Shown here: piece after piece, positions 5,534-24,120 of the stretch
Position numbering within the stretch: the first letter of the stretch is position 1
Layout: every line of letters starts with the position of its first letter
DNA from: Promethearchaeota archaeon
GTDB lineage: Archaea; Asgardarchaeota; Lokiarchaeia; Sigyniarchaeales; SOKP01
DNA: 64,000 nt
Direction of reading: 5' to 3'
NCBI GenBank assembly: GCA_016839555.1
Contig: JAEOUA010000006.1
Location: 256,001 to 320,000 of the forward strand
Translations under genes and position numbers: made by a program
Notes under the pieces: model-generated
Database searches by the model: none
The model's input: only the letters and a program-made list of their open reading frames with translations
Told to the model about the DNA's origin: nothing

Positions 5534-6433
5534 TTATTCATTTCCAGATATAAAAATATTTCCAGTGATAATAGCGCACAAGAATTCATAATTGTGTTCT
5601 GCCGGATGATTTGACGATCTATATTCATTTGTAATTCCTGAAACAGCATAATTTAAGAATTCGGCACTTACATTATTACTTGTATCAGAATACTCTATAA
5701 ATATATTCCCTGTAACTATTCCTATGATTCCATCTACATTCGAATTCATAGCTTCATGTTGATTAATACTAAAAAAGATATTCCCGGTTATTCCGTAAAT
5801 ATCGAAATTACAATCATATTGATATGTAGAATTAAGGGATGAGACACTTATTAGTCCATTTATTACTCCAATAGACACATCTCCACCCAGAATTGCATTG
5901 GTAAGATCAGCTTTAATATTTCCTGTGGTACTGAAGAGTCGTAAATTATTAATTTCATTATTTCCAGGAAAGGAAGTAAAAATATTTCCACTCACCGTTG
6001 ACAATTGCACCGTTCCTAAAGAAACATTTTCTGGGACGTTCAGTAATATCGAGCCGTTATTGATAAAAATATTCAGATTATATTTTATATCCGTACGTAA
6101 TTGAACTTTAAGAATTTCTGTTTTTTCAGGAATAAGTATTGTTGATTGATTTTGAGTTTGATAGCTAAATTGAGGGATTCCGATCATATTTTCATAGCCT
6201 AATTGTACAATAAGCTTTTCCTCCATTGGCGTGCTATTATAGCCAACAATCACATCACAAACTCCCACGTCAATCAAAAGATCTTCGTAAGATCCCTGTG
6301 TTTTTGAATAAATATAATTTTGCGAGGGCTCCGAATTTGCTATTGCAGCATACACAAAATAGGATGACACCAAAATACCAGTCGTGATTAATGCCGCAAC
6401 GATTAATATTGGGATTGCTATTTTTTTTTTCAT
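5534..6433 (-). CDS. Membrane-anchored beta-strand repeat protein (DUF4097/adhesin-like)
   Basis: N-terminal TM helix; repeated (S/T)GNI units. Confidence 0.65.
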   Translation of the reverse strand: MKKKIAIPILIVAALITTGILVSSYFVYAAIANSEPSQNYIYSKTQGSYEDLLIDVGVCDVIVGYNSTPMEEKLIVQLGYENMIGIPQFSYQTQNQSTILIPEKTEILKVQLRTDIKYNLNIFINNGSILLNVPENVSLGTVQLSTVSGNIFTSFPGNNEINNLRLFSTTGNIKADLTNAILGGDVSIGVINGLISVSSLNSTYQYDCNFDIYGITGNIFFSINQHEAMNSNVDGIIGIVTGNIFIEYSDTSNNVSAEFLNYAVSGITNEYRSSNHPAEHNYEFLCAIITGNIFISGNE

Positions 6434-6759
6434 TTTTTTTTAGATTTCGAATAAGTAATTTACTTATGTTGAAGATATCTGATTTTATTTTTAAATTAAA
6501 TTTAAGCCAATCTTTGTCAATTGGTGCATTTTAATTTTTTGGTAAAACCACCATAAAAAAAAAAGATTTAATGATTTTCTTTAAAAAAAGTCATTTATTT
6601 CCTATAAGAAATTCTTTCGATCATTTTTTATAGCATAATTAACCATTAAGATATACTTATAGATTCAGAACATAATATTTAAATAGTTGAAATTATTTTG
6701 TAATAATAAGGATGATGTAAAGAATCGATTTACATCAAAACCTTTACAAAAAAAAACGA

Positions 6760-7422
6760 TTGATAAAAATGGTATTTGGAAACAAATTCGATAAAATATT
6801 CGATCCTCAAAAAAATTTACGTTCAAATGACCGAAAGAATAGCATAACATTAGAAGAATTAGAAAAGCTTAAAGAAAACGCGAAAAAATATATTTCTTGT
6901 AAAAATAAAAATGAAGAATTAACCCGAAAAAATAAGGAATTAGAGGAAAAAATTAAAGTTCTGTCAGAAAAAGTCGACGAATTAAAAGATAAAAACGAAA
7001 ATTATTTACAGCGATTGCAAAGACTTCAAGCTGATTTCGAAAATTATAGAAAACGCATAGATCGAGATAATGCTAATCACAAACGATATGCAACAGAGAG
7101 GATTCTTAAAAAGTTAATTAATCATTATGATGATTTGAAAAGGGCAAAGAAAGTAATTAATGCTCTTAAGGTCGAAGATTCGGTGAAGAAAGGATTTGAA
7201 ATGATTACTAAGAATTTTAAAAAGTTATTAGAGGAAGAAGGAGTAAAAGCTATGAAGTGCGAAGGTGAAAAATTTGATCCGTATAAACATGATGCAATGA
7301 TGGTAATGCAAAACGAAAGTGTTCCAGAAAATACAGTACTTGAAGAATTAGAAAAGGGATATTATTTTGATAAAGAGGTCTTACGACCAGCAAAAGTAGT
7401 GGTTTCCAAAAAATCATGTTAA
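6760..7422 (+). CDS. grpE: Nucleotide exchange factor GrpE
   Basis: RLQADFENYRKR, FDPYKHDA, GY...VLRPAKVVV. Confidence 0.96.
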   Translation: MIKMVFGNKFDKIFDPQKNLRSNDRKNSITLEELEKLKENAKKYISCKNKNEELTRKNKELEEKIKVLSEKVDELKDKNENYLQRLQRLQADFENYRKRIDRDNANHKRYATERILKKLINHYDDLKRAKKVINALKVEDSVKKGFEMITKNFKKLLEEEGVKAMKCEGEKFDPYKHDAMMVMQNESVPENTVLEELEKGYYFDKEVLRPAKVVVSKKSC

Positions 7423-7511
7423 TTTAATTATTTAAATTAAAAATAAAGTAGAAAAACCAAAATATAAAAATTTATAAATAAAAATTAAAAAACTATAAGG
7501 AGTGAAAAATT

Positions 7512-9422
7512 ATGGGAAAAATTATTGGTATTGACTTAGGAACTTCTAACTCTGCAGCCGCTGTATTAAGCGGAGGGAGTCCAGAGATTATTCCTAGTAA
7601 AGAAGGAGTAACATTATACGGAAAAGCGTTTCCATCGGTAGTTGCATTCACCAAGGATGGACAAAGAATAGTTGGAGAACCTGCAAGACGACAAGCGATA
7701 TCTAATCCAGAGAGAACAATTACTGGTATTAAAAGGAAGATGGGAACTTCTTATACTGTAGAGATTGACGGTAAAGACTATACACCACAGGAAATTTCAG
7801 CAATGATCTTACGAAAAATAAAAGAAGACGCAAGCGATTATTTGGGAGAAGAAGTAACTGACGTGATTATCACCGTTCCTGCGTATTTTAATGATAATCA
7901 AAGACAAGCAACCAAGGATGCAGGTAAAATTGCGGGATTTAATGTTCGAAGATTAATCAATGAGCCTACTGCTGCTGCGGTGGCATTTGGATTAGATAAG
8001 AAAGGACAACACCTTAACATCGCAGTATTAGACTTAGGAGGTGGTACATTCGATGTTACCATTATGGAAATGGACGATCGAGTCTTTGAAGTTATTTCTA
8101 CTGCAGGCGACACTCAATTGGGAGGTCGCGATATGGATGATTTGTTAGTGGATTACATTGTCGAGGACTTTAAGAAACAGGAAGGAATCGATTTAAAAGA
8201 AGATAAGATGGCTTTACAGAGAGTTAAAGAAGCCGCAGAAAAAGCTAAAATCGAGCTCTCAACAGTTTTAAAGACCGAGATTAACTTACCATACATAACT
8301 GCTACAAATACTGGACCAAAACATCTCACTATGGAAATTACAAGAGCGAAGTTAGAGCAATTAATCCAACCAGTTTTAAAAAGATTGGAAGGACCAATTA
8401 AGAAAGCAATAAGAGATGCGGGGATGAAGAGTGAAGAAATTGATAAGGTGATCCTTGTTGGCGGACCGACTAGAATGCCTTCTGTACAAGAAAAATTCAA
8501 GGAATTTTTAGGTACAAAACCGGAGGGAGGAATTGATCCGATGGAATGTGTCGCGATGGGAGCTGCTATTCAAGGAGGAGTGCTTACCGGCGAAGTTAAA
8601 GACTTACTTCTATTAGATGTGACACCTTTATCTTTAGGAGTAGAAACCCTTGGTGGCGTATTTACGAAATTGATTGATCGAAACACCACAATTCCAACGC
8701 AAGCGACTGAAACATTTACTACAGCTGCCGACAATCAAACAGCAGTCGAAATCAATGTATTACAAGGAGAACGTCCACAAGCGAAAGATAATATTTCTTT
8801 AGGAAAATTTCATTTAACGGGAATTCCACCTGCTCCACGAGGAATACCACAAATTAAAGTGAGTTTTGATATAGATGCTGATGGGATATTGAATGTGACT
8901 GCTCAGGATAAAGCGACTGGTAAATCTCAATCTATTACCATTACTGCCTCTACTAAGATGAATGATGACGAGATTGAGCAAAAAGTCAGAGAAGCAGAGC
9001 GATATGCTGAAGAAGATAAAAAATTCAAAGAACTTGTTGAAACGAGAAATATGGGTGAATCTTTAGTTTATCAAGCGGAGAAAATCCTAAAAGAAAATGC
9101 GGGACTTGTTGGGGATCTCAAAGATAGCATTGAGAAAAAGATTGAAAATCTTAAGGATGTTTTGCAATCTGACAGTAAGCAAAAGATTCAGAGCGCGATT
9201 GACGAATTACAGAAAGCTTTACATGAAGTCTCTTCGAGGATGTATGGTCAAGGTCAGCAACCAGGACAATCATATCAAGGCGCACCTCCTGGAGGAATGG
9301 GAGGAACTCCAGGATCTACCTATAATACTGGAGGATCAAAAAAAACTCAGGACGAGATAGAAGAAGAGAAGTATAGAAGAGCCACAGGTCAAGACGACGT
9401 CGTAGACGCCGATTATGAGTAG
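7512..9422 (+). CDS. dnaK: Chaperone DnaK (Hsp70)
   Basis: [44 protein letters not shown]. Confidence 0.99.
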
Positions 9423-9527
9423 AAATAAAAATTTTTTTTATTTTTTTTCAATTTTTTTTTGATTATTAATATCAAGATTATTATCTAACGATTATTATTA
9501 TCATTATAAGTAAGAGAGTTCAAATTT

Positions 9528-10562
9528 ATGCCAAAAAAAGATTATTATAAAGTATTAGGAGTCGATAAGAGTGCTTCCAAGGATGAGATAAAGCGAGCAT
9601 TCCGTAAAAAGGCACGAAAATATCATCCAGATGTTAATCCAGATGAACCACGATCGGGAGAAAAATTCAAGGAGATTAATGAGGCATATAGAATATTAAG
9701 CGATGATGAAAAAAGAGAAATGTATGATAAATTTGGTGTTGTAGAGGGCGAAATGCCTTCTCAAGATCAGTGGGGAGGATTTGGTGATACTGGTGAGGGA
9801 GGCGGAAGAGTGTATCGAACTCCTGATGGGAGAACAGTATATTATTCCACCTCTGGGTCTCCAGGAGGAGGATTTGATTTCAGCGATATTTTCGGAGGTG
9901 GAAGAGGTGGTGGAATAGGCGGAGGCTTCGATTTCTTCAGTGATTTAAAAGACATCTTCGATGTGTTTGGTGGAGGATCCAGAGGAGGAAGGAGAACTTC
10001 AGGGCAGCGCTATACCTCCCGAACGACTATGCCACGGGAAGGCGAGGATCTTAAATATGATATGTCGATAGATTTTATGGAAGCATATTATGGAGGAAAG
10101 AAAAGAATTCAATATCGAAATCCCACCACTGGGACAACTGAAACGCTAACAGTTAAGATTCCGCGAGGAATTATGGAAGGACAAAAATTACGATTAAAAG
10201 GCAAGGGAATGCCAGGAAGTGATGGAGGAAAGGCGGGAGATTTATATATAAATATTCATATCAACGACCATCCCGTTTTTGAAAGAAGAGGTGATGATAT
10301 TTATATAACTGAAGAAATTCCCTTTACCACCGCAGTTCTTGGAGGTAAAGTTTCCGTGCAGGGAATTGATAGAAGCTTAAATGTAACCGTTCCTGCGGGA
10401 ACAGAAGACTCCACCACATTACGCCTAAAAAACCAAGGATTTCCAAAAGTTAATTCGAACGAAAGGGGAAATTTAATGGTAAAAATTAAAATTAAAGTGC
10501 CCAGTAAATTAAATAAAAAACAAAAAGAGTTATTAAGACAATTAAAAGAAACTGGGTTATAG
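9528..10562 (+). CDS. dnaJ: DnaJ class B (CbpA-like, no zinc finger)
   Basis: J-domain with HPD, G/F-rich linker, C-terminal domains, no CxxCxGxG repeats. Confidence 0.93.
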
Positions 10563-14144: not shown

Positions 14145-14840
14145 TTATGAAATATCTGCTCGATCGAATAGTCTTCTTTTCAATTTTAACAAATTTGTGT
14201 CTTCATTATAATCTATTAAATCGATATTAGCTAATTCATGAATTGCTCGTAAAACCATAGCGCCAGAAATTCCTGTGGTTTTCTTTATTTCATCTCTCGT
14301 CATTTCTTCTTTTTCTCCATGGAGAGTCATTAAAATCCTAAAGTGAGGTTGTCCCTGCCATATTTCCTGTAATAAAACGTTATATATAGACAGCAATGCT
14401 TTGATTTTATTAATGTTAAACTCTTCTTCTTCTTTATCAACAACAATTTTAGAAAGATTTTTTAGTTCTTCCTTGAGGGATTCATATTCTTTAAGTAATT
14501 TTTTTTGTTCCGTAGTTAAATCACCAATTTTTTGATCTCGTTCTTGCTTCTCTCTCTCCAATTTTTTTGTCTCTTCTTCCAATTGTGTTTTATCTTGTTC
14601 TAACTTTATTTTATCATCTTCTAATGCATGTTTTTCTCTCTCTAATTTTTTTGTTTCTTGTTCTAATTGCTGTTTTTCTTTTTCTAAGAGTGCCTTTTCA
14701 TTACTTAATTGTTCCTTATCTTCTTCTAATTGGTTTAATTCTTCTTTAGCTTTTTGAAGAGAAACTTTTATATCCTCAATAGCGTTTAAAGTGTTATTTA
14801 TGACTTTGATAGTATTTTTTTCTTCCGTCATTGTATTCAC
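14145..14840 (-). CDS. Coiled-coil protein with C-terminal winged-helix domain
   Basis: Heptad repeats (LEQETKKLEREK / LEEETKKLEREK); C-terminal MTRDEIKKTTGISGAMVLRAIHEL; start may be ATG 14831. Confidence 0.75.
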   Translation of the reverse strand: MNTMTEEKNTIKVINNTLNAIEDIKVSLQKAKEELNQLEEDKEQLSNEKALLEKEKQQLEQETKKLEREKHALEDDKIKLEQDKTQLEEETKKLEREKQERDQKIGDLTTEQKKLLKEYESLKEELKNLSKIVVDKEEEEFNINKIKALLSIYNVLLQEIWQGQPHFRILMTLHGEKEEMTRDEIKKTTGISGAMVLRAIHELANIDLIDYNEDTNLLKLKRRLFDRADIS

Positions 14841-17799: not shown

Positions 17800-17973
17800 A
17801 TTTTTAATTTTTTTTTTCTTTTTTTAAAAATAATCAAAAAATCTTTTCTCGGACTGTCTTTTTTAAGATTTAAGTGATTCTTGTGAATTATCTATAACTT
17901 ATATTATAAATCTTTTTAAACATCACTAATTTTAATAATATTAAAAATTAATGCTTGAAAAGCTGCAAAACTA

Positions 17974-18231
17974 GTGTCCATGTCTGAGGCAACATTTTTC
18001 TTATTTATTGCGGGTGCAAATGCATTAATATCTAAGAAAGCATTGAAGAATATTAAAAATAAATTCAAGGAGAAGCATTATTCTCTAATGGTTGTTGATA
18101 TTTTAGAAAATCCTCATGTTGCGGAATCAGTCGGAATTGTGGCGACTCCCTTATTAATGAGGACTTCCCCTGAACCCGTAAGAAGGTTTATAGGGGACTT
18201 TACTAATTCTGAACAAGATTTATTCATTTAA
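17974..18231 (+). CDS. kaiB: KaiB family protein
   Basis: LFIAG...SKKALKN, VVDILENPHVAE, ATPLL, PEPVRRFIGD match the KaiB pattern; directly upstream of kaiC; start may be ATG 17980. Confidence 0.9.
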   Translation: MSMSEATFFLFIAGANALISKKALKNIKNKFKEKHYSLMVVDILENPHVAESVGIVATPLLMRTSPEPVRRFIGDFTNSEQDLFI

Positions 18232-18260
18232 ATTTTTACTTAAGCTCAATTGGTCTATTC

Positions 18261-19724
18261 ATGAAAAATATAGAAAAGATACCTAGTGGTATTGAAGGAT
18301 TTGATATCATTTCTATGGGGGGGATTCCTAAAAACAAAATGACCTTAATTTCTGGTACACCAGGGAGTGGTAAAACAATTTTTTGCACGCAATTTCTTGT
18401 TGGGGGAATTATCACTTCTAATGAGCCAGCTGTGTTTGTAACTTTTGAAGAATCTCCAGAGGATATCATAATTAATATGGAGCATTTCGGCTGGGATATT
18501 CAACACTATTTAGATGCTAGTCTCTGGAAATTTGTAGATGTTTCACCTCGAATAGATGAAGATTTTTTGATTAGGGGAAATTATGACCTCAGCGGCCTGA
18601 TAGTTCGAATTAAATCCGCAGTGGAAAAGATAAGAGCAAAACGAGTGGTTTTGGACTCTATAAGTGTTCTTTTTAATAAATATCCCGACACAGATATCAT
18701 AAGAAAGGAAATAATAAGGCTTAAATCTTTATTAAAATCTTTATATGTAACTTCGCTAATAACTTCGGAACGCTACGAAGAACTTGGAGGTGGAAGTTCT
18801 CATTATGATGTTCTTGATTTTGTCAGCGATAATGTGATTATCTTCAAAAATTCGATGTTTGAAGAATATCGCCGGCGAACGATCGAGATTATGAAATATC
18901 GGGGTGCCGCCCATAAAAAAGGACAACACTCGTTTACCATCAAAAATAATAAAGGAATAATAGTTATTTCTTTTGAAAGGAATCCTAATAAAAAAAAGCT
19001 TGAGCGAAAAAGGAAATCAACTGGAATAAAAACTTTAGACGAGATCACGGGTGGTGGATTTTTCGAAGGATCATCCGTTCTTGTTTCAGGTCAGACAGGC
19101 ACTGGAAAAACCCTTTTAGCGCTTTCAATGCTTGATGGGGCACTCCAACATGGAGAAAAATGCATATTGTTCAATTATGAAGAAAGTCGCGAACAAATCC
19201 TCCAGAAAGCTCGTACTTGGGACATAGATTTAATAGATGCTGAAAAAAATGGAAATCTTAAAATAATATGCATATATCCAGAATCACAAGGAATCGAGGA
19301 TCTTATTGTAGATATGAAATCGATAATACAAACTTTTAAACCAGAACGAATATTTATCGACAGTATTTCTGCTTTAGAACGTATTACCACCAAGCTTACG
19401 TTTAGACAATCGCTTATTAATCTCTTTCTCCTTGCGAAAGAAGAAAATATAATTGCAGTTTTTACCACTACGGCTCCCACTTTTTCTGGACCCTTTTTAG
19501 AGACAAAAAAACATGTTACTACCCTTTCTGATGCGATTCTCTTGCTAAGATATTTTGAGCGAGAAGGAGAAATGATTCGCGGCATCGCTATCATGAAAAT
19601 GAGAGATTCTGTCCATTCAAAGCGATTTTTAGAATATTCTATCGATAATAAAGGCTTTCATATCCTTTCGCCTATAGAGGATAATGCAGGAATATGTGAT
19701 TTTTTTAGAATAGAAAAAATGTAA
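18261..19724 (+). CDS. kaiC: KaiC double-domain ATPase/autokinase
   Basis: CI: GTPGSGKT, FEES, KYRG; CII: GQTGTGKT, YEES, KMRD; HVTTLSD at the phosphosite position. Confidence 0.93.
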   Translation: MKNIEKIPSGIEGFDIISMGGIPKNKMTLISGTPGSGKTIFCTQFLVGGIITSNEPAVFVTFEESPEDIIINMEHFGWDIQHYLDASLWKFVDVSPRIDEDFLIRGNYDLSGLIVRIKSAVEKIRAKRVVLDSISVLFNKYPDTDIIRKEIIRLKSLLKSLYVTSLITSERYEELGGGSSHYDVLDFVSDNVIIFKNSMFEEYRRRTIEIMKYRGAAHKKGQHSFTIKNNKGIIVISFERNPNKKKLERKRKSTGIKTLDEITGGGFFEGSSVLVSGQTGTGKTLLALSMLDGALQHGEKCILFNYEESREQILQKARTWDIDLIDAEKNGNLKIICIYPESQGIEDLIVDMKSIIQTFKPERIFIDSISALERITTKLTFRQSLINLFLLAKEENIIAVFTTTAPTFSGPFLETKKHVTTLSDAILLLRYFEREGEMIRGIAIMKMRDSVHSKRFLEYSIDNKGFHILSPIEDNAGICDFFRIEKM

Positions 19725-21751: not shown

Positions 21752-22144
21752 ATGATTTTAAAAATCAATACAATAGATCAACTTGAGGATAATATCTCAA
21801 ATCATCTTGTCGCCGTGATTTTTTTTATAGAACAGGATTCTGATATGTGCAATGAATTGCTGGGAAGGATAAAGTTGGAATTGCTTCCTTATATAAAAGA
21901 GATAGATGGAGTATCCTTAATGAAAATTTCATTAGATTGCGAGATTGATTTTTTTGACCATTTTAATATTAATGAAATACCAAGTACTCTCATTTTTTAT
22001 AAGGGAAAACAAGTCTTATTTTTCGAGCAAGATAAGGAAGGAATTATGTATAAGACCGATAGATTTATTGGAAATGATCCAGACCTTCCGAATAAATTAT
22101 TTCGCTTTATCTTACATCTTTATAAGCGATTTGATAAGGAATAG
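21752..22144 (+). CDS. Thioredoxin-fold protein lacking CxxC
   Basis: VIFF...SDMC, FNINEIPSTLIFYKGK (cis-Pro loop). Confidence 0.65.
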   Translation: MILKINTIDQLEDNISNHLVAVIFFIEQDSDMCNELLGRIKLELLPYIKEIDGVSLMKISLDCEIDFFDHFNINEIPSTLIFYKGKQVLFFEQDKEGIMYKTDRFIGNDPDLPNKLFRFILHLYKRFDKE

Positions 22145-23271: not shown

Positions 23272-24120
23272 ATGAAGGATTCAGCGAAAGTTTTAATAGC
23301 TGGGCTCGATTATGCTGGTAAAACTTCTATTATGATCGCATTGAATGAACAGAAGGATTATATAGATAAGGTTCTAAATCTTGCAACAACCATCCGTGTC
23401 GACCATATAGAAATTAAGTTTCTTGGAGGATCTGTGATTTTCTGGGATATGGGGGGGCAAAAAGAATATAGAGAGTTATATAAAAAACGAAAAGAATTTT
23501 ATTTTGGGGATGCTGATATTTTAATTTATGCCATTGATATACAAGATGCTGAACGTTTTTCAGAGTCTCTAGATTATTTAGATACTATTTTTAATTATTT
23601 TCGTGAGGATGGAGAAATAATTCCTATAGTCGTTACCTTTCACAAATCAGATCCAGAAGTAATAGAAAATCCAGAAATAAAAAGAAATGTGGATGAATTA
23701 ACCGAGAAAATTAAGAAAAATTATCCAGATTTCGAGATTCTTTTCCAACAAACCTCCATTTATGATATTGTATCAATTATTAAGATGATTTCCTACGGAT
23801 TGGCTGTATTAAATGAGGACTTCTTTGAGTTATACAATTTACTTGAAGAATATTCAATGAATTTAGATTGTATAGGGTTATTTTTGCTTGATAGAAATGG
23901 AATGATAATTTGTAAGTATTTTAAGAATCAAATTGAGGAAGAAATTTATTCTAGATTAGAAAAATCTCTAAAACAACATATTTATGAACTTAAGGATAAG
24001 AAAGAAAAAGGAGAAGCGATTGAGCGTAAGATTTTTGAGGATGAAAATGAGATACGCTCTTATCTCCATCCCATAAAATATCGGGAAGAGGAATATTATG
24101 TATCAATTCTTCTTGATTAA
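23272..24120 (+). CDS. Arf/Rag-like small GTPase with C-terminal roadblock/longin-like domain
   Basis: GLDYAGKTS, WDMGGQ, HKSD; C-terminal LFLLDRNGMII. Confidence 0.88.
   Translation: MKDSAKVLIAGLDYAGKTSIMIALNEQKDYIDKVLNLATTIRVDHIEIKFLGGSVIFWDMGGQKEYRELYKKRKEFYFGDADILIYAIDIQDAERFSESLDYLDTIFNYFREDGEIIPIVVTFHKSDPEVIENPEIKRNVDELTEKIKKNYPDFEILFQQTSIYDIVSIIKMISYGLAVLNEDFFELYNLLEEYSMNLDCIGLFLLDRNGMIICKYFKNQIEEEIYSRLEKSLKQHIYELKDKKEKGEAIERKIFEDENEIRSYLHPIKYREEEYYVSILLD

Follow-up and report, generated by a model that had tools for sequence, protein, structure and literature searches.

A kaiB-kaiC pair in a family of Lokiarchaeia: a candidate KaiA-independent, environment-driven phospho-switch of bacterial type

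What might a paired KaiB and KaiC do in an archaeon that shows no KaiA? The question is raised by a 64,000-nucleotide stretch of a Promethearchaeota genome from the class Lokiarchaeia (assembly GCA_016839555.1, contig JAEOUA010000006.1; C5:256001-320000), hereafter the window, in which two co-oriented open reading frames (ORFs) on the plus strand, 17974-18231 and 18261-19724, encode KaiB and a double-domain KaiC with 29 nucleotides between them. The cyanobacterial clock supposedly arose from KaiA-free KaiBC systems, of which, to our knowledge, few have been studied (Rhodobacter, Rhodopseudomonas, Legionella and Synechocystis KaiC3), almost none in archaea. The explanation that we favor, with moderate confidence, is a bacterial-type, KaiA-independent and environment-driven KaiB-KaiC post-translational phospho-switch, long fixed in one Lokiarchaeia family and later trimmed.

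The KaiC and KaiB products

The kaiC product is matched by PF06745 in two stretches (372.7 bits) and passes the cut-off of the NCBIfam KaiC model NF006799 (544 bits against 408), while remaining below that of the cyanobacterial KaiC equivalog TIGR02655 (467.8 against 546.25 bits). Its best PDB match is 8ZN5 (2.4e-150), a reconstructed ancestral KaiC-beta (PMC12081879), followed by KaiC of Thermosynechococcus and Synechococcus (about 1e-131 to 1e-123) and of Rhodobacter (about 1e-73), with archaeal single-domain KaiC-like proteins at about 1e-30 or weaker. Expressed as bit scores, the protein reaches 415-504 to clock-type (KaiC1-like) proteins, 252 to Rhodobacter 8DB3/8DBA and 84-110 to the archaeal single-domain forms. 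It is about 45-48% identical to KaiC1-type proteins, much closer than to the KaiC2 type.

Residues were mapped by alignment to Thermosynechococcus KaiC, the HISTITD motif of which has Ser as residue 431. In both CI and CII the Walker A, the Walker B Asp, the catalytic Glu pair and the Arg motif are intact, the arginines being R226 (KxRG, CI) and R459 (KMRxS, CII) in Thermosynechococcus numbering, and all catalytic residues are kept in the six KaiCs of the family. The counterpart of the S431/T432 phospho-acceptor pair is present by sequence, as HVTT (T420, T421) in the window and HIST in relatives, with T421 invariant across the Asgard KaiC set. The CI B-loop region is one residue longer than in cyanobacterial KaiC. 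Judged from these residues, the window KaiC has everything needed for a double-ring ATPase, autokinase and autophosphatase. Rough NG86 ratios of nonsynonymous to synonymous substitution (dN/dS) are about 0.07 for kaiC, with dS saturated, and 0.19-0.34 for kaiB, which points to purifying selection on the two genes.

The C-terminus is shortened, the A-loop sequence (487-497) and the KaiA-binding tail both being absent from the window KaiC in the alignment. In cyanobacterial KaiC, the A-loop holds the protein in a kinase-off state. Adjoining the CII arginine finger, we also observed that KMRGS has become KMRDS (G460D; window 19593-19607, KaiC residues 445-449), a change that is fixed in all six family KaiCs, with Gly in the more distant Asgard genome G168 and in the aligned cyanobacterial references.

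For kaiB, ATG 17980 is a likelier start than GTG 17974, since orthologues in relatives begin with MSE or MSD. The product matches the Pfam KaiB profile (PF07689) with 60.9 bits against a gathering score of 27, and stays under the KaiB equivalog cut-offs of TIGR02654 (51.4 against 145.3 bits) and NF006798 (53.6 against 110). The best PDB match is the fold-switch-stabilised Thermosynechococcus KaiB 5JWO_B (5.9e-14). Alignment shows that the core ATPxL, RR and GD motifs and basic surface residues are retained, that no CxxC motif is found, and that the protein ends about 10 residues past the GDF/GDL motif, so that the C-terminal VLxGLDL segment is missing. The segment is equally absent from the KaiBs of G002, G006 and G014, diverged in G004 and G012, and kept by all bacterial KaiBs aligned and by both KaiBs of G168. 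It forms the last strand of the KaiB ground-state fold (VLIGLDL) and carries the switch positions G89/D91; the window KaiB, in which it is absent from the alignment, does not class as a metamorphic, fold-switching KaiB. An AlphaFold2 (AF2) model with a predicted local distance difference test (pLDDT) score of 83 is thioredoxin-like, in the beta-alpha-beta-alpha-beta-beta order of the fold-switched state, and its closest structural matches are fold-switched KaiB (5JYT/5JWO) and Legionella KaiB (4KUN), with template modelling (TM) scores of 0.78-0.81.

A complex of CI (residues 1-245) with KaiB was predicted with an ipSAE of 0.84, the best control giving 0.00; of 80 solved complexes 58 come up to the mark applied to this score, as do 2 of 110 mismatched pairs. 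Model runs agree in at least 96% of contacts with a partner pLDDT of at least 84, and the modelled KaiB interface is the B-loop, residues 99-113 of CI. Since the cyanobacterial complex is already solved (5JWO), the model speaks for likeness, a sequence-preserved interface, rather than for binding. The features of the locus are collected in Table 1.

Table 1. Features of the kaiB-kaiC locus, in window positions
Feature	Position	Strand	Remarks
AT-rich intergenic region, P-type ATPase to kaiB	17800..17979	+	presumed promoter region; left edge of the relocated cassette
kaiB	17980..18231	+	83 residues from ATG 17980; alternative GTG 17974 gives 85
kaiC	18261..19724	+	487 residues, double-domain CI + CII; ends near Synechococcus position 493
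CI Walker A GTPGSGKT, residues 32-39	18354..18377	+	G32/P34/G35/G37/K38 invariant across Asgard KaiCs
CI catalytic glutamates E63-E64 (= E77/E78)	18447..18452	+	alignment
CI B-loop region, residues 99-113	18555..18599	+	predicted KaiB docking site; alignment and predicted CI-KaiB interface
CII Walker A GQTGTGKT, residues 277-284	19089..19112	+	alignment
CII catalytic glutamates E307-E308 (= E318/E319)	19179..19184	+	alignment
Phosphosite segment T415...H418-V-T420-T421 (= T426, S431 as Thr, T432)	19503..19523	+	alignment

Genome, distribution and descent

The genome (3.74 Mb in 12 contigs, 92.45% complete, 6.39% estimated contamination) holds one true KaiC, all other PF06745 matches scoring below 26 bits, and KaiA (PF07688) was matched nowhere in this 92.45%-complete assembly. 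Because the KaiB-domain match is single, a SasA-like kinase is likewise lacking from the genome, which encodes about 21 HisKA kinases, the nearest on the contig lying beyond the window, some 84 kb away from kaiB. As the KaiC is devoid of A-loop and KaiA-binding tail, any activity must be KaiA-independent, and with KaiA unmatched and the A-loop features absent, the pair is not a KaiABC oscillator. Neither does it fall in the KaiC2/Rhodobacter type, which is marked by a C-terminal coiled-coil extension (a KaiC of about 570 residues), Ser-Ser sites and a linked histidine kinase: the window KaiC has 487 residues, Thr-Thr sites, no kinase within 84 kb and 252 bits to 8DB3. The sequence-only reading of the locus, which had proposed a kaiB-kaiC operon in a probable Asgard archaeon, with motifs intact in both rings, neither kaiA nor an adjacent histidine kinase, and a KaiA-independent mode of action, is borne out in these points by ORF positions, profiles and alignment, and by a same-genus relative recorded as Ca. 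Lokiarchaeota BC3 / Promethearchaeota; the energy-state or time-keeping role that it also put forward stays putative.

KaiC matches at E <= 1e-60 occur in 9 of 400 Asgard species genomes, the window genome included. Full-length double-domain forms are found in seven, all of one class; six belong to the window family (G000, the window genome, and G002, G004, G006, G012 and G014) and the seventh, G168, to another family of the class, where the genes form a tandem kaiB-kaiC-kaiB-kaiC array. The remaining two, G017 and G282, have a 243-residue single-domain form. The complete single-contig genomes searched within the order yielded no KaiC match. kaiB immediately precedes kaiC in all 88 loci examined, namely every Asgard locus and all 80 drawn from the species-genome collection.

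The G168 array (L097, G168:C1:457000-473000, about 6259-9973, minus strand) was observed to keep an A-loop-like tail and KMRGS in both KaiCs and VLxGLxL in both KaiBs. Around the array lie genes that BLAST clustering groups with the PAS/HisKA kinases and receivers found at the other loci, and the array has the look of the cassette before trimming. In G282 and G017, kaiB is followed by the 243-residue CI-like KaiC on the minus strand (L099, G282:C24, 6281-7271; L100, G017:C394, 3129-4116), again flanked by genes clustering with kinase and receiver genes. This KaiC is 47% identical to the window CI and ends at TAA, with no CII ORF seen downstream, and is either a natural CI-only form or a truncated gene.

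A quick IQ-TREE phylogeny (LG+C20 PMSF, 72 rows, rooted on KaiC2-like long forms) places the six family KaiCs in one clade on a long stem, with an SH-like approximate likelihood ratio (SH-aLRT) of 100, inside bacterial KaiB-paired KaiCs from Chloroflexota, Gemmatimonadota, Proteobacteria, Cyanobacteria and others. Within the clade, the KaiCs of the window, G002 and G006 make up a subclade (100) to which G014 is sister (99), whereas G004 and G012 branch basally. The free tree puts the two G168 KaiCs elsewhere among bacteria. Two acquisitions in Asgard, by the family clade and by G168, were however not supported by the approximately unbiased (AU) test: the tree that holds all eight Asgard KaiCs together is better than the quick free tree by 19.8 log-likelihood units (p-AU 0.73), and a single acquisition may therefore suffice for the class. 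Composition flags were raised, and a shared low-GC amino-acid bias may contribute to the Asgard grouping.

In an exhaustive search of 1.84 billion cluster representatives the best match was the Asgard KaiC of G012 at 50%, the next being at 45% and lower. Because the tree leaves the base of the family clade as an unresolved polytomy, the donor phylum cannot be named. The rarity of the cassette in Asgard and its nesting among bacterial KaiCs nevertheless make an old bacterial origin the economical reading, and the gene sequences fit a kaiBC transferred from bacteria long ago; the horizontal acquisition put forward in the sequence-only reading agrees with this patchiness (7 of 400) and nesting. 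The transfer was not a recent one, since the composition of the genes has become fully that of the host. The guanine-plus-cytosine (GC) content of kaiB and kaiC is 0.34-0.35, against 0.33 +/- 0.04 for host ORFs, and at third codon positions (GC3) 0.275-0.298, against 0.251 +/- 0.025, with total GC of bacterial kaiC at 0.47-0.59.

The surroundings of the cassette vary. In G004, G012, G014, G017, G282 and G168 it has PAS/GAF-HisKA-HATPase kinases and receiver domains, stand-alone or fused, for neighbors, as KaiA-free kaiBC operons usually do, and this linkage has been lost in the subclade of the window, G002 and G006. In G002, G006 and one Joint Genome Institute (JGI) metagenome contig, kaiBC sits between a 244-residue gene and a NikR-like ribbon-helix-helix gene. 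In G000 no more than 45 bp separate these two genes on contig C11 and nothing occupies the kaiBC slot; the kaiBC of this genome lies between a P-type ATPase and an ECF-S-like membrane protein. The ATPase/ECF-S site of G002, G004 and G006 carries a crotonase-like gene (231-268 residues) and an M20-like peptidase gene (about 420 residues), a pair that we observed to be replaced by kaiBC in the window genome (17800-19790, compared with L103, L104 and L105). As the sites differ between G000 and its same-genus relatives, kaiB and kaiC moved as a unit within the genus and were never separated. The NikR-like gene was considered as an output and ruled out, given that in G000 it keeps the same neighbor without kaiBC. 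No third gene is conserved with the cassette across the compared loci, and no insertion-sequence-like terminal repeats were found to flank it, only A/T-run inverted repeats. A promoter and terminator scan gave sigma-70 matches below the shuffled expectation; its bacterial consensus is inapplicable to an archaeon, and the scan was set aside.

Other neighbors were noted in passing. A 282-residue Gtr1/RagA-like small GTPase (23272-24120, plus strand; Pfam Gtr1_RagA 7.6e-21, Arf 3.1e-17) is encoded 3.5 kb downstream of kaiC; GTPases of this kind count among the eukaryote-signature proteins that Asgard genomes typically carry. G014 has a homologue immediately upstream of kaiB, and G282 has one some 3 kb upstream, on the far side of two kinase/receiver-family genes, a proximity that may be coincidental. 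The window further encodes a 231-residue protein (14145-14840, minus strand) with a long charged coiled coil of E/K/Q/L repeats and a short C-terminal globular part, having weak Pfam coiled-coil matches only, and a 130-residue ORF (21752-22144, plus strand) with no Pfam match at E <= 0.01.

A proposed phospho-switch and its alternatives

How could such a switch operate? With no A-loop to bury, KaiC is expected to be a constitutive autokinase, and the hexamer would by default autophosphorylate on T420/T421 while ATP is plentiful. The short KaiB, without the last ground-state strand segment, would reside mainly in the thioredoxin-like fold and dock on the CI B-loop (residues ~99-113), and bound KaiB would drive ATP hydrolysis and dephosphorylation of KaiC as ATP:ADP falls, by analogy with Rhodobacter. 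The outcome would be an hourglass or energy-state phospho-switch set by the environment, not a free-running clock. In R. sphaeroides, indeed, an exposed A-loop yields a constitutive KaiA-free kinase, and KaiB increases both ATP consumption and dephosphorylation when ATP:ADP is low (PMC10076222), and KaiC3-type proteins, two archaeal ones included, autophosphorylate without KaiA (PMC5520375). Signalling in the window subclade would need unlinked partners; about 21 HisKA kinases are encoded in the genome. The switch could track diel redox or energy cycles of a surface hypersaline mat, the sampling site of a carrier of the same genus: G002 (Baja_Loki3, SHMW01000067, 'Promethearchaeota archaeon isolate BC3'), in which the orthologue is 68% identical, is a Lokiarchaeota metagenome-assembled genome (MAG) from a salt lagoon, where the uppermost 1 cm of a hypersaline biomat was sampled (Manoharan et al. 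2019, PMC6737245). The paper on that genome mentions neither Kai nor circadian (PMC6737245).

Several observations weigh against the proposed switch. The T426 equivalent (T415 in the window) is not conserved among orthologues, and G460D may alter kinase or phosphatase activity. R. sphaeroides KaiC truncated at Glu490, before the coiled coil, phosphorylates normally and dephosphorylates poorly (PMC10076222), and a short-tailed KaiC might therefore be stuck in the phosphorylated state. According to a review, the kaiBC of Legionella works in stress resistance without detectable KaiB-KaiC binding or timing (PMC10671191). The argument from the KaiB fold is weak, because AF2 tends to give fold-switched KaiB whatever the truth. 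Kinase and receiver neighbors are absent from the window, G002 and G006 loci, leaving no linked output partner. Finally, the habitat argument would apply to the window genome by way of its relative G002, and the putative Lokiarchaeial switch is known here from genes and models.

The Legionella case leads to another possible, though clearly less probable, explanation, namely that the pair is KaiBC by ancestry only and serves as a stress- or fitness-response ATPase module, with a phospho-regulated KaiC, an independent KaiB and neither cycle nor timing, as proposed for Legionella pneumophila. The match of the KaiB model to 4KUN, KaiB scores far under the NCBIfam equivalog cut-offs (51-54 against 110-145 bits), the lack of any linked output kinase in the window subclade and the reviewed absence of interaction in Legionella are congruent with it; it does, however, leave unexplained the strict kaiB-kaiC adjacency through two relocations and about 30% protein divergence, the retained basic KaiB surface and B-loop, and a CI-KaiB model that passes its controls, albeit one that resembles solved complexes. 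More doubtful is a streamlined device in which KaiC is always kinase-on and KaiB locked in the thioredoxin fold, acting with an unrecognised partner as a fast diel sensor, driven by ATP/ADP or redox state, in sunlit hypersaline mats; under this reading the slow steps of the cyanobacterial clock have been removed, since A-loop and ground-state strand are both missing. A self-sustained circadian oscillator akin to KaiABC, in which an unrecognised protein or the KaiC tail plays the part of KaiA, is very improbable. In its favor, KaiB is present together with the phosphosite pair and the two ATPase rings, and damped oscillation is reported for cyanobacteria without KaiA (PMC7205874), but KaiA is unmatched in the genome, a KaiA-like activator would find neither A-loop nor tail to work on, the slow fold-switch segment is missing from KaiB, a second, SasA-like KaiB domain is absent from the genome, and no conserved third gene travels with the cassette.

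Two further explanations concern origin rather than function. That a native archaeal KaiC-like signalling ATPase was here joined by a thioredoxin-like partner, with no transferred bacterial KaiBC, might be entertained given how widespread KaiC-family ATPases are in archaea. Scores, genome census and tree already contradict it as far as sequences can tell: the window KaiC has 415-504 bits to clock-type proteins against 84-110 to archaeal single-domain ones, the other PF06745 matches in the genome stay under 26 bits, the protein nests among bacterial KaiB-paired KaiCs, and KaiB has no CxxC motif; we regard this origin as highly unlikely. Least credible of all is an artefact in which a piece of bacterial DNA with kaiBC was fused to an Asgard contig during assembly or sorted together with it during binning; the estimated contamination of the bin might argue for this. 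The pair lies in the middle of a 603,911-bp contig, near window genes for transcription factor B (TFB) and the Gtr1/RagA-like GTPase, and its GC and GC3 are host-like. The P-type ATPase directly upstream of kaiB is 72% identical to orthologues in two same-genus genomes, the order ATPase-kaiB-kaiC-201-residue gene, with the same junctions, recurs on a 6.8-kb contig of a second assembly (Logan, SRR14699980), and two further MAGs of the genus, as well as two JGI metagenomes, hold orthologues at 68-71% identity. The artefact is thereby already contradicted: chimerism, which the sequence-only reading had wanted checked, is excluded, and the contig is native to the Lokiarchaeon.

The preferred KaiA-independent phospho-switch gives the clade its interest, as a natural minimal KaiBC, with KaiC lacking the A-loop and KaiB the fold-switch tail, that could separate the Kai parts needed for a phospho-switch from those needed for delay. 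It also singles out a small Asgard group for possible diel regulation, at least one member inhabiting the uppermost centimetre of a hypersaline mat; were the streamlined reading true, the pair would be the first time-of-day device in archaeal relatives of eukaryotes. The tie to a eukaryote-related lineage drawn in the sequence-only reading goes too far, as few Lokiarchaeial genomes carry the cassette and the searched complete single-contig genomes of the order do not. Being rare, of the bacterial KaiB-paired type and not found in the searched complete cultured-type genomes of the order, it has no bearing on eukaryote origins. Its novelty was similarly overstated, relatives being already annotated in public records ('Circadian clock protein KaiB [Promethearchaeota archaeon]', 'circadian clock protein KaiC [Candidatus Lokiarchaeota archaeon]'). 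We found no paper treating KaiBC in Asgard archaea when searching the literature for KaiB and KaiC with Asgard or Lokiarchaeota; KaiB had been recorded in only four archaeal genera (Schmelling et al. 2017, PMC5520375). What the present analysis adds is the relocation inside the genus, the kinase linkage of the basal relatives, the phylum census and the AU result.

Comparison with known Kai systems

The archaeal single-domain KaiC-like ATPases (PH0186, PH0284, SSO2452; ArlH) share with the window KaiC the RecA-like KaiC-family fold, yet consist of a single domain, lack both a KaiB partner and the S/T-T phosphosite segment, and score 84-110 bits. With KaiABC of Synechococcus elongatus PCC 7942 and Thermosynechococcus, the window pair has in common the catalytic motifs of both rings, the T426/S431/T432 equivalents, the B-loop and the KaiB core, whereas KaiA, A-loop, tail, SasA or any KaiB-domain kinase, and the KaiB fold-switch segment are missing. 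Legionella pneumophila KaiBC (4KUN) offers a short KaiB of stable thioredoxin-like fold (TM ~0.8), a non-photosynthetic host and likewise no KaiA; its two proteins are however reported not to interact, whereas a B-loop interface is predicted for the window pair with high model confidence, and the window KaiC is nearer in sequence to KaiC1/KaiC3.

The hourglass of Rhodobacter (Cereibacter) sphaeroides KD131 (PDB 8DBA, 8FWI, 8FWJ) and the system of Rhodopseudomonas palustris are similarly KaiA-free, and the window pair would resemble them in an expected constitutive kinase with no buried A-loop, in the ATP:ADP ratio as likely cue, and in KaiB seated on CI in a thioredoxin-like fold, for the window as a model. 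Their KaiC is of another subgroup (252 bits to 8DB3/8DBA against 415-504 to KaiC1-like proteins), and the window differs in having no C-terminal coiled coil or dodecamer, Thr-Thr in place of Ser-Ser and no adjacent histidine kinase.

The window pair is best placed among the KaiA-free KaiBC systems. By shared traits it appears nearest to the KaiC3-like group, the KaiB3-KaiC3-type operons known from cyanobacteria, further bacteria and a number of archaea, with Synechocystis sp. PCC 6803 KaiC3 and the KaiC3 homologues of Thermococcus and Pyrococcus as examples. The Lokiarchaeial KaiC stops earlier than these, with the A-loop wholly absent and G460D fixed, and its KaiB has 83 residues without VLxGLDL and is accompanied by no KaiA3-like gene. 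What unites them is kaiB directly upstream of a double-domain KaiC of about 490 residues, Ser/Thr-Thr phosphosites with an A-loop that is poorly conserved or absent (PMC6989803), and an autophosphorylation expected to be independent of KaiA(1) (PMC6989803; PMC5520375).

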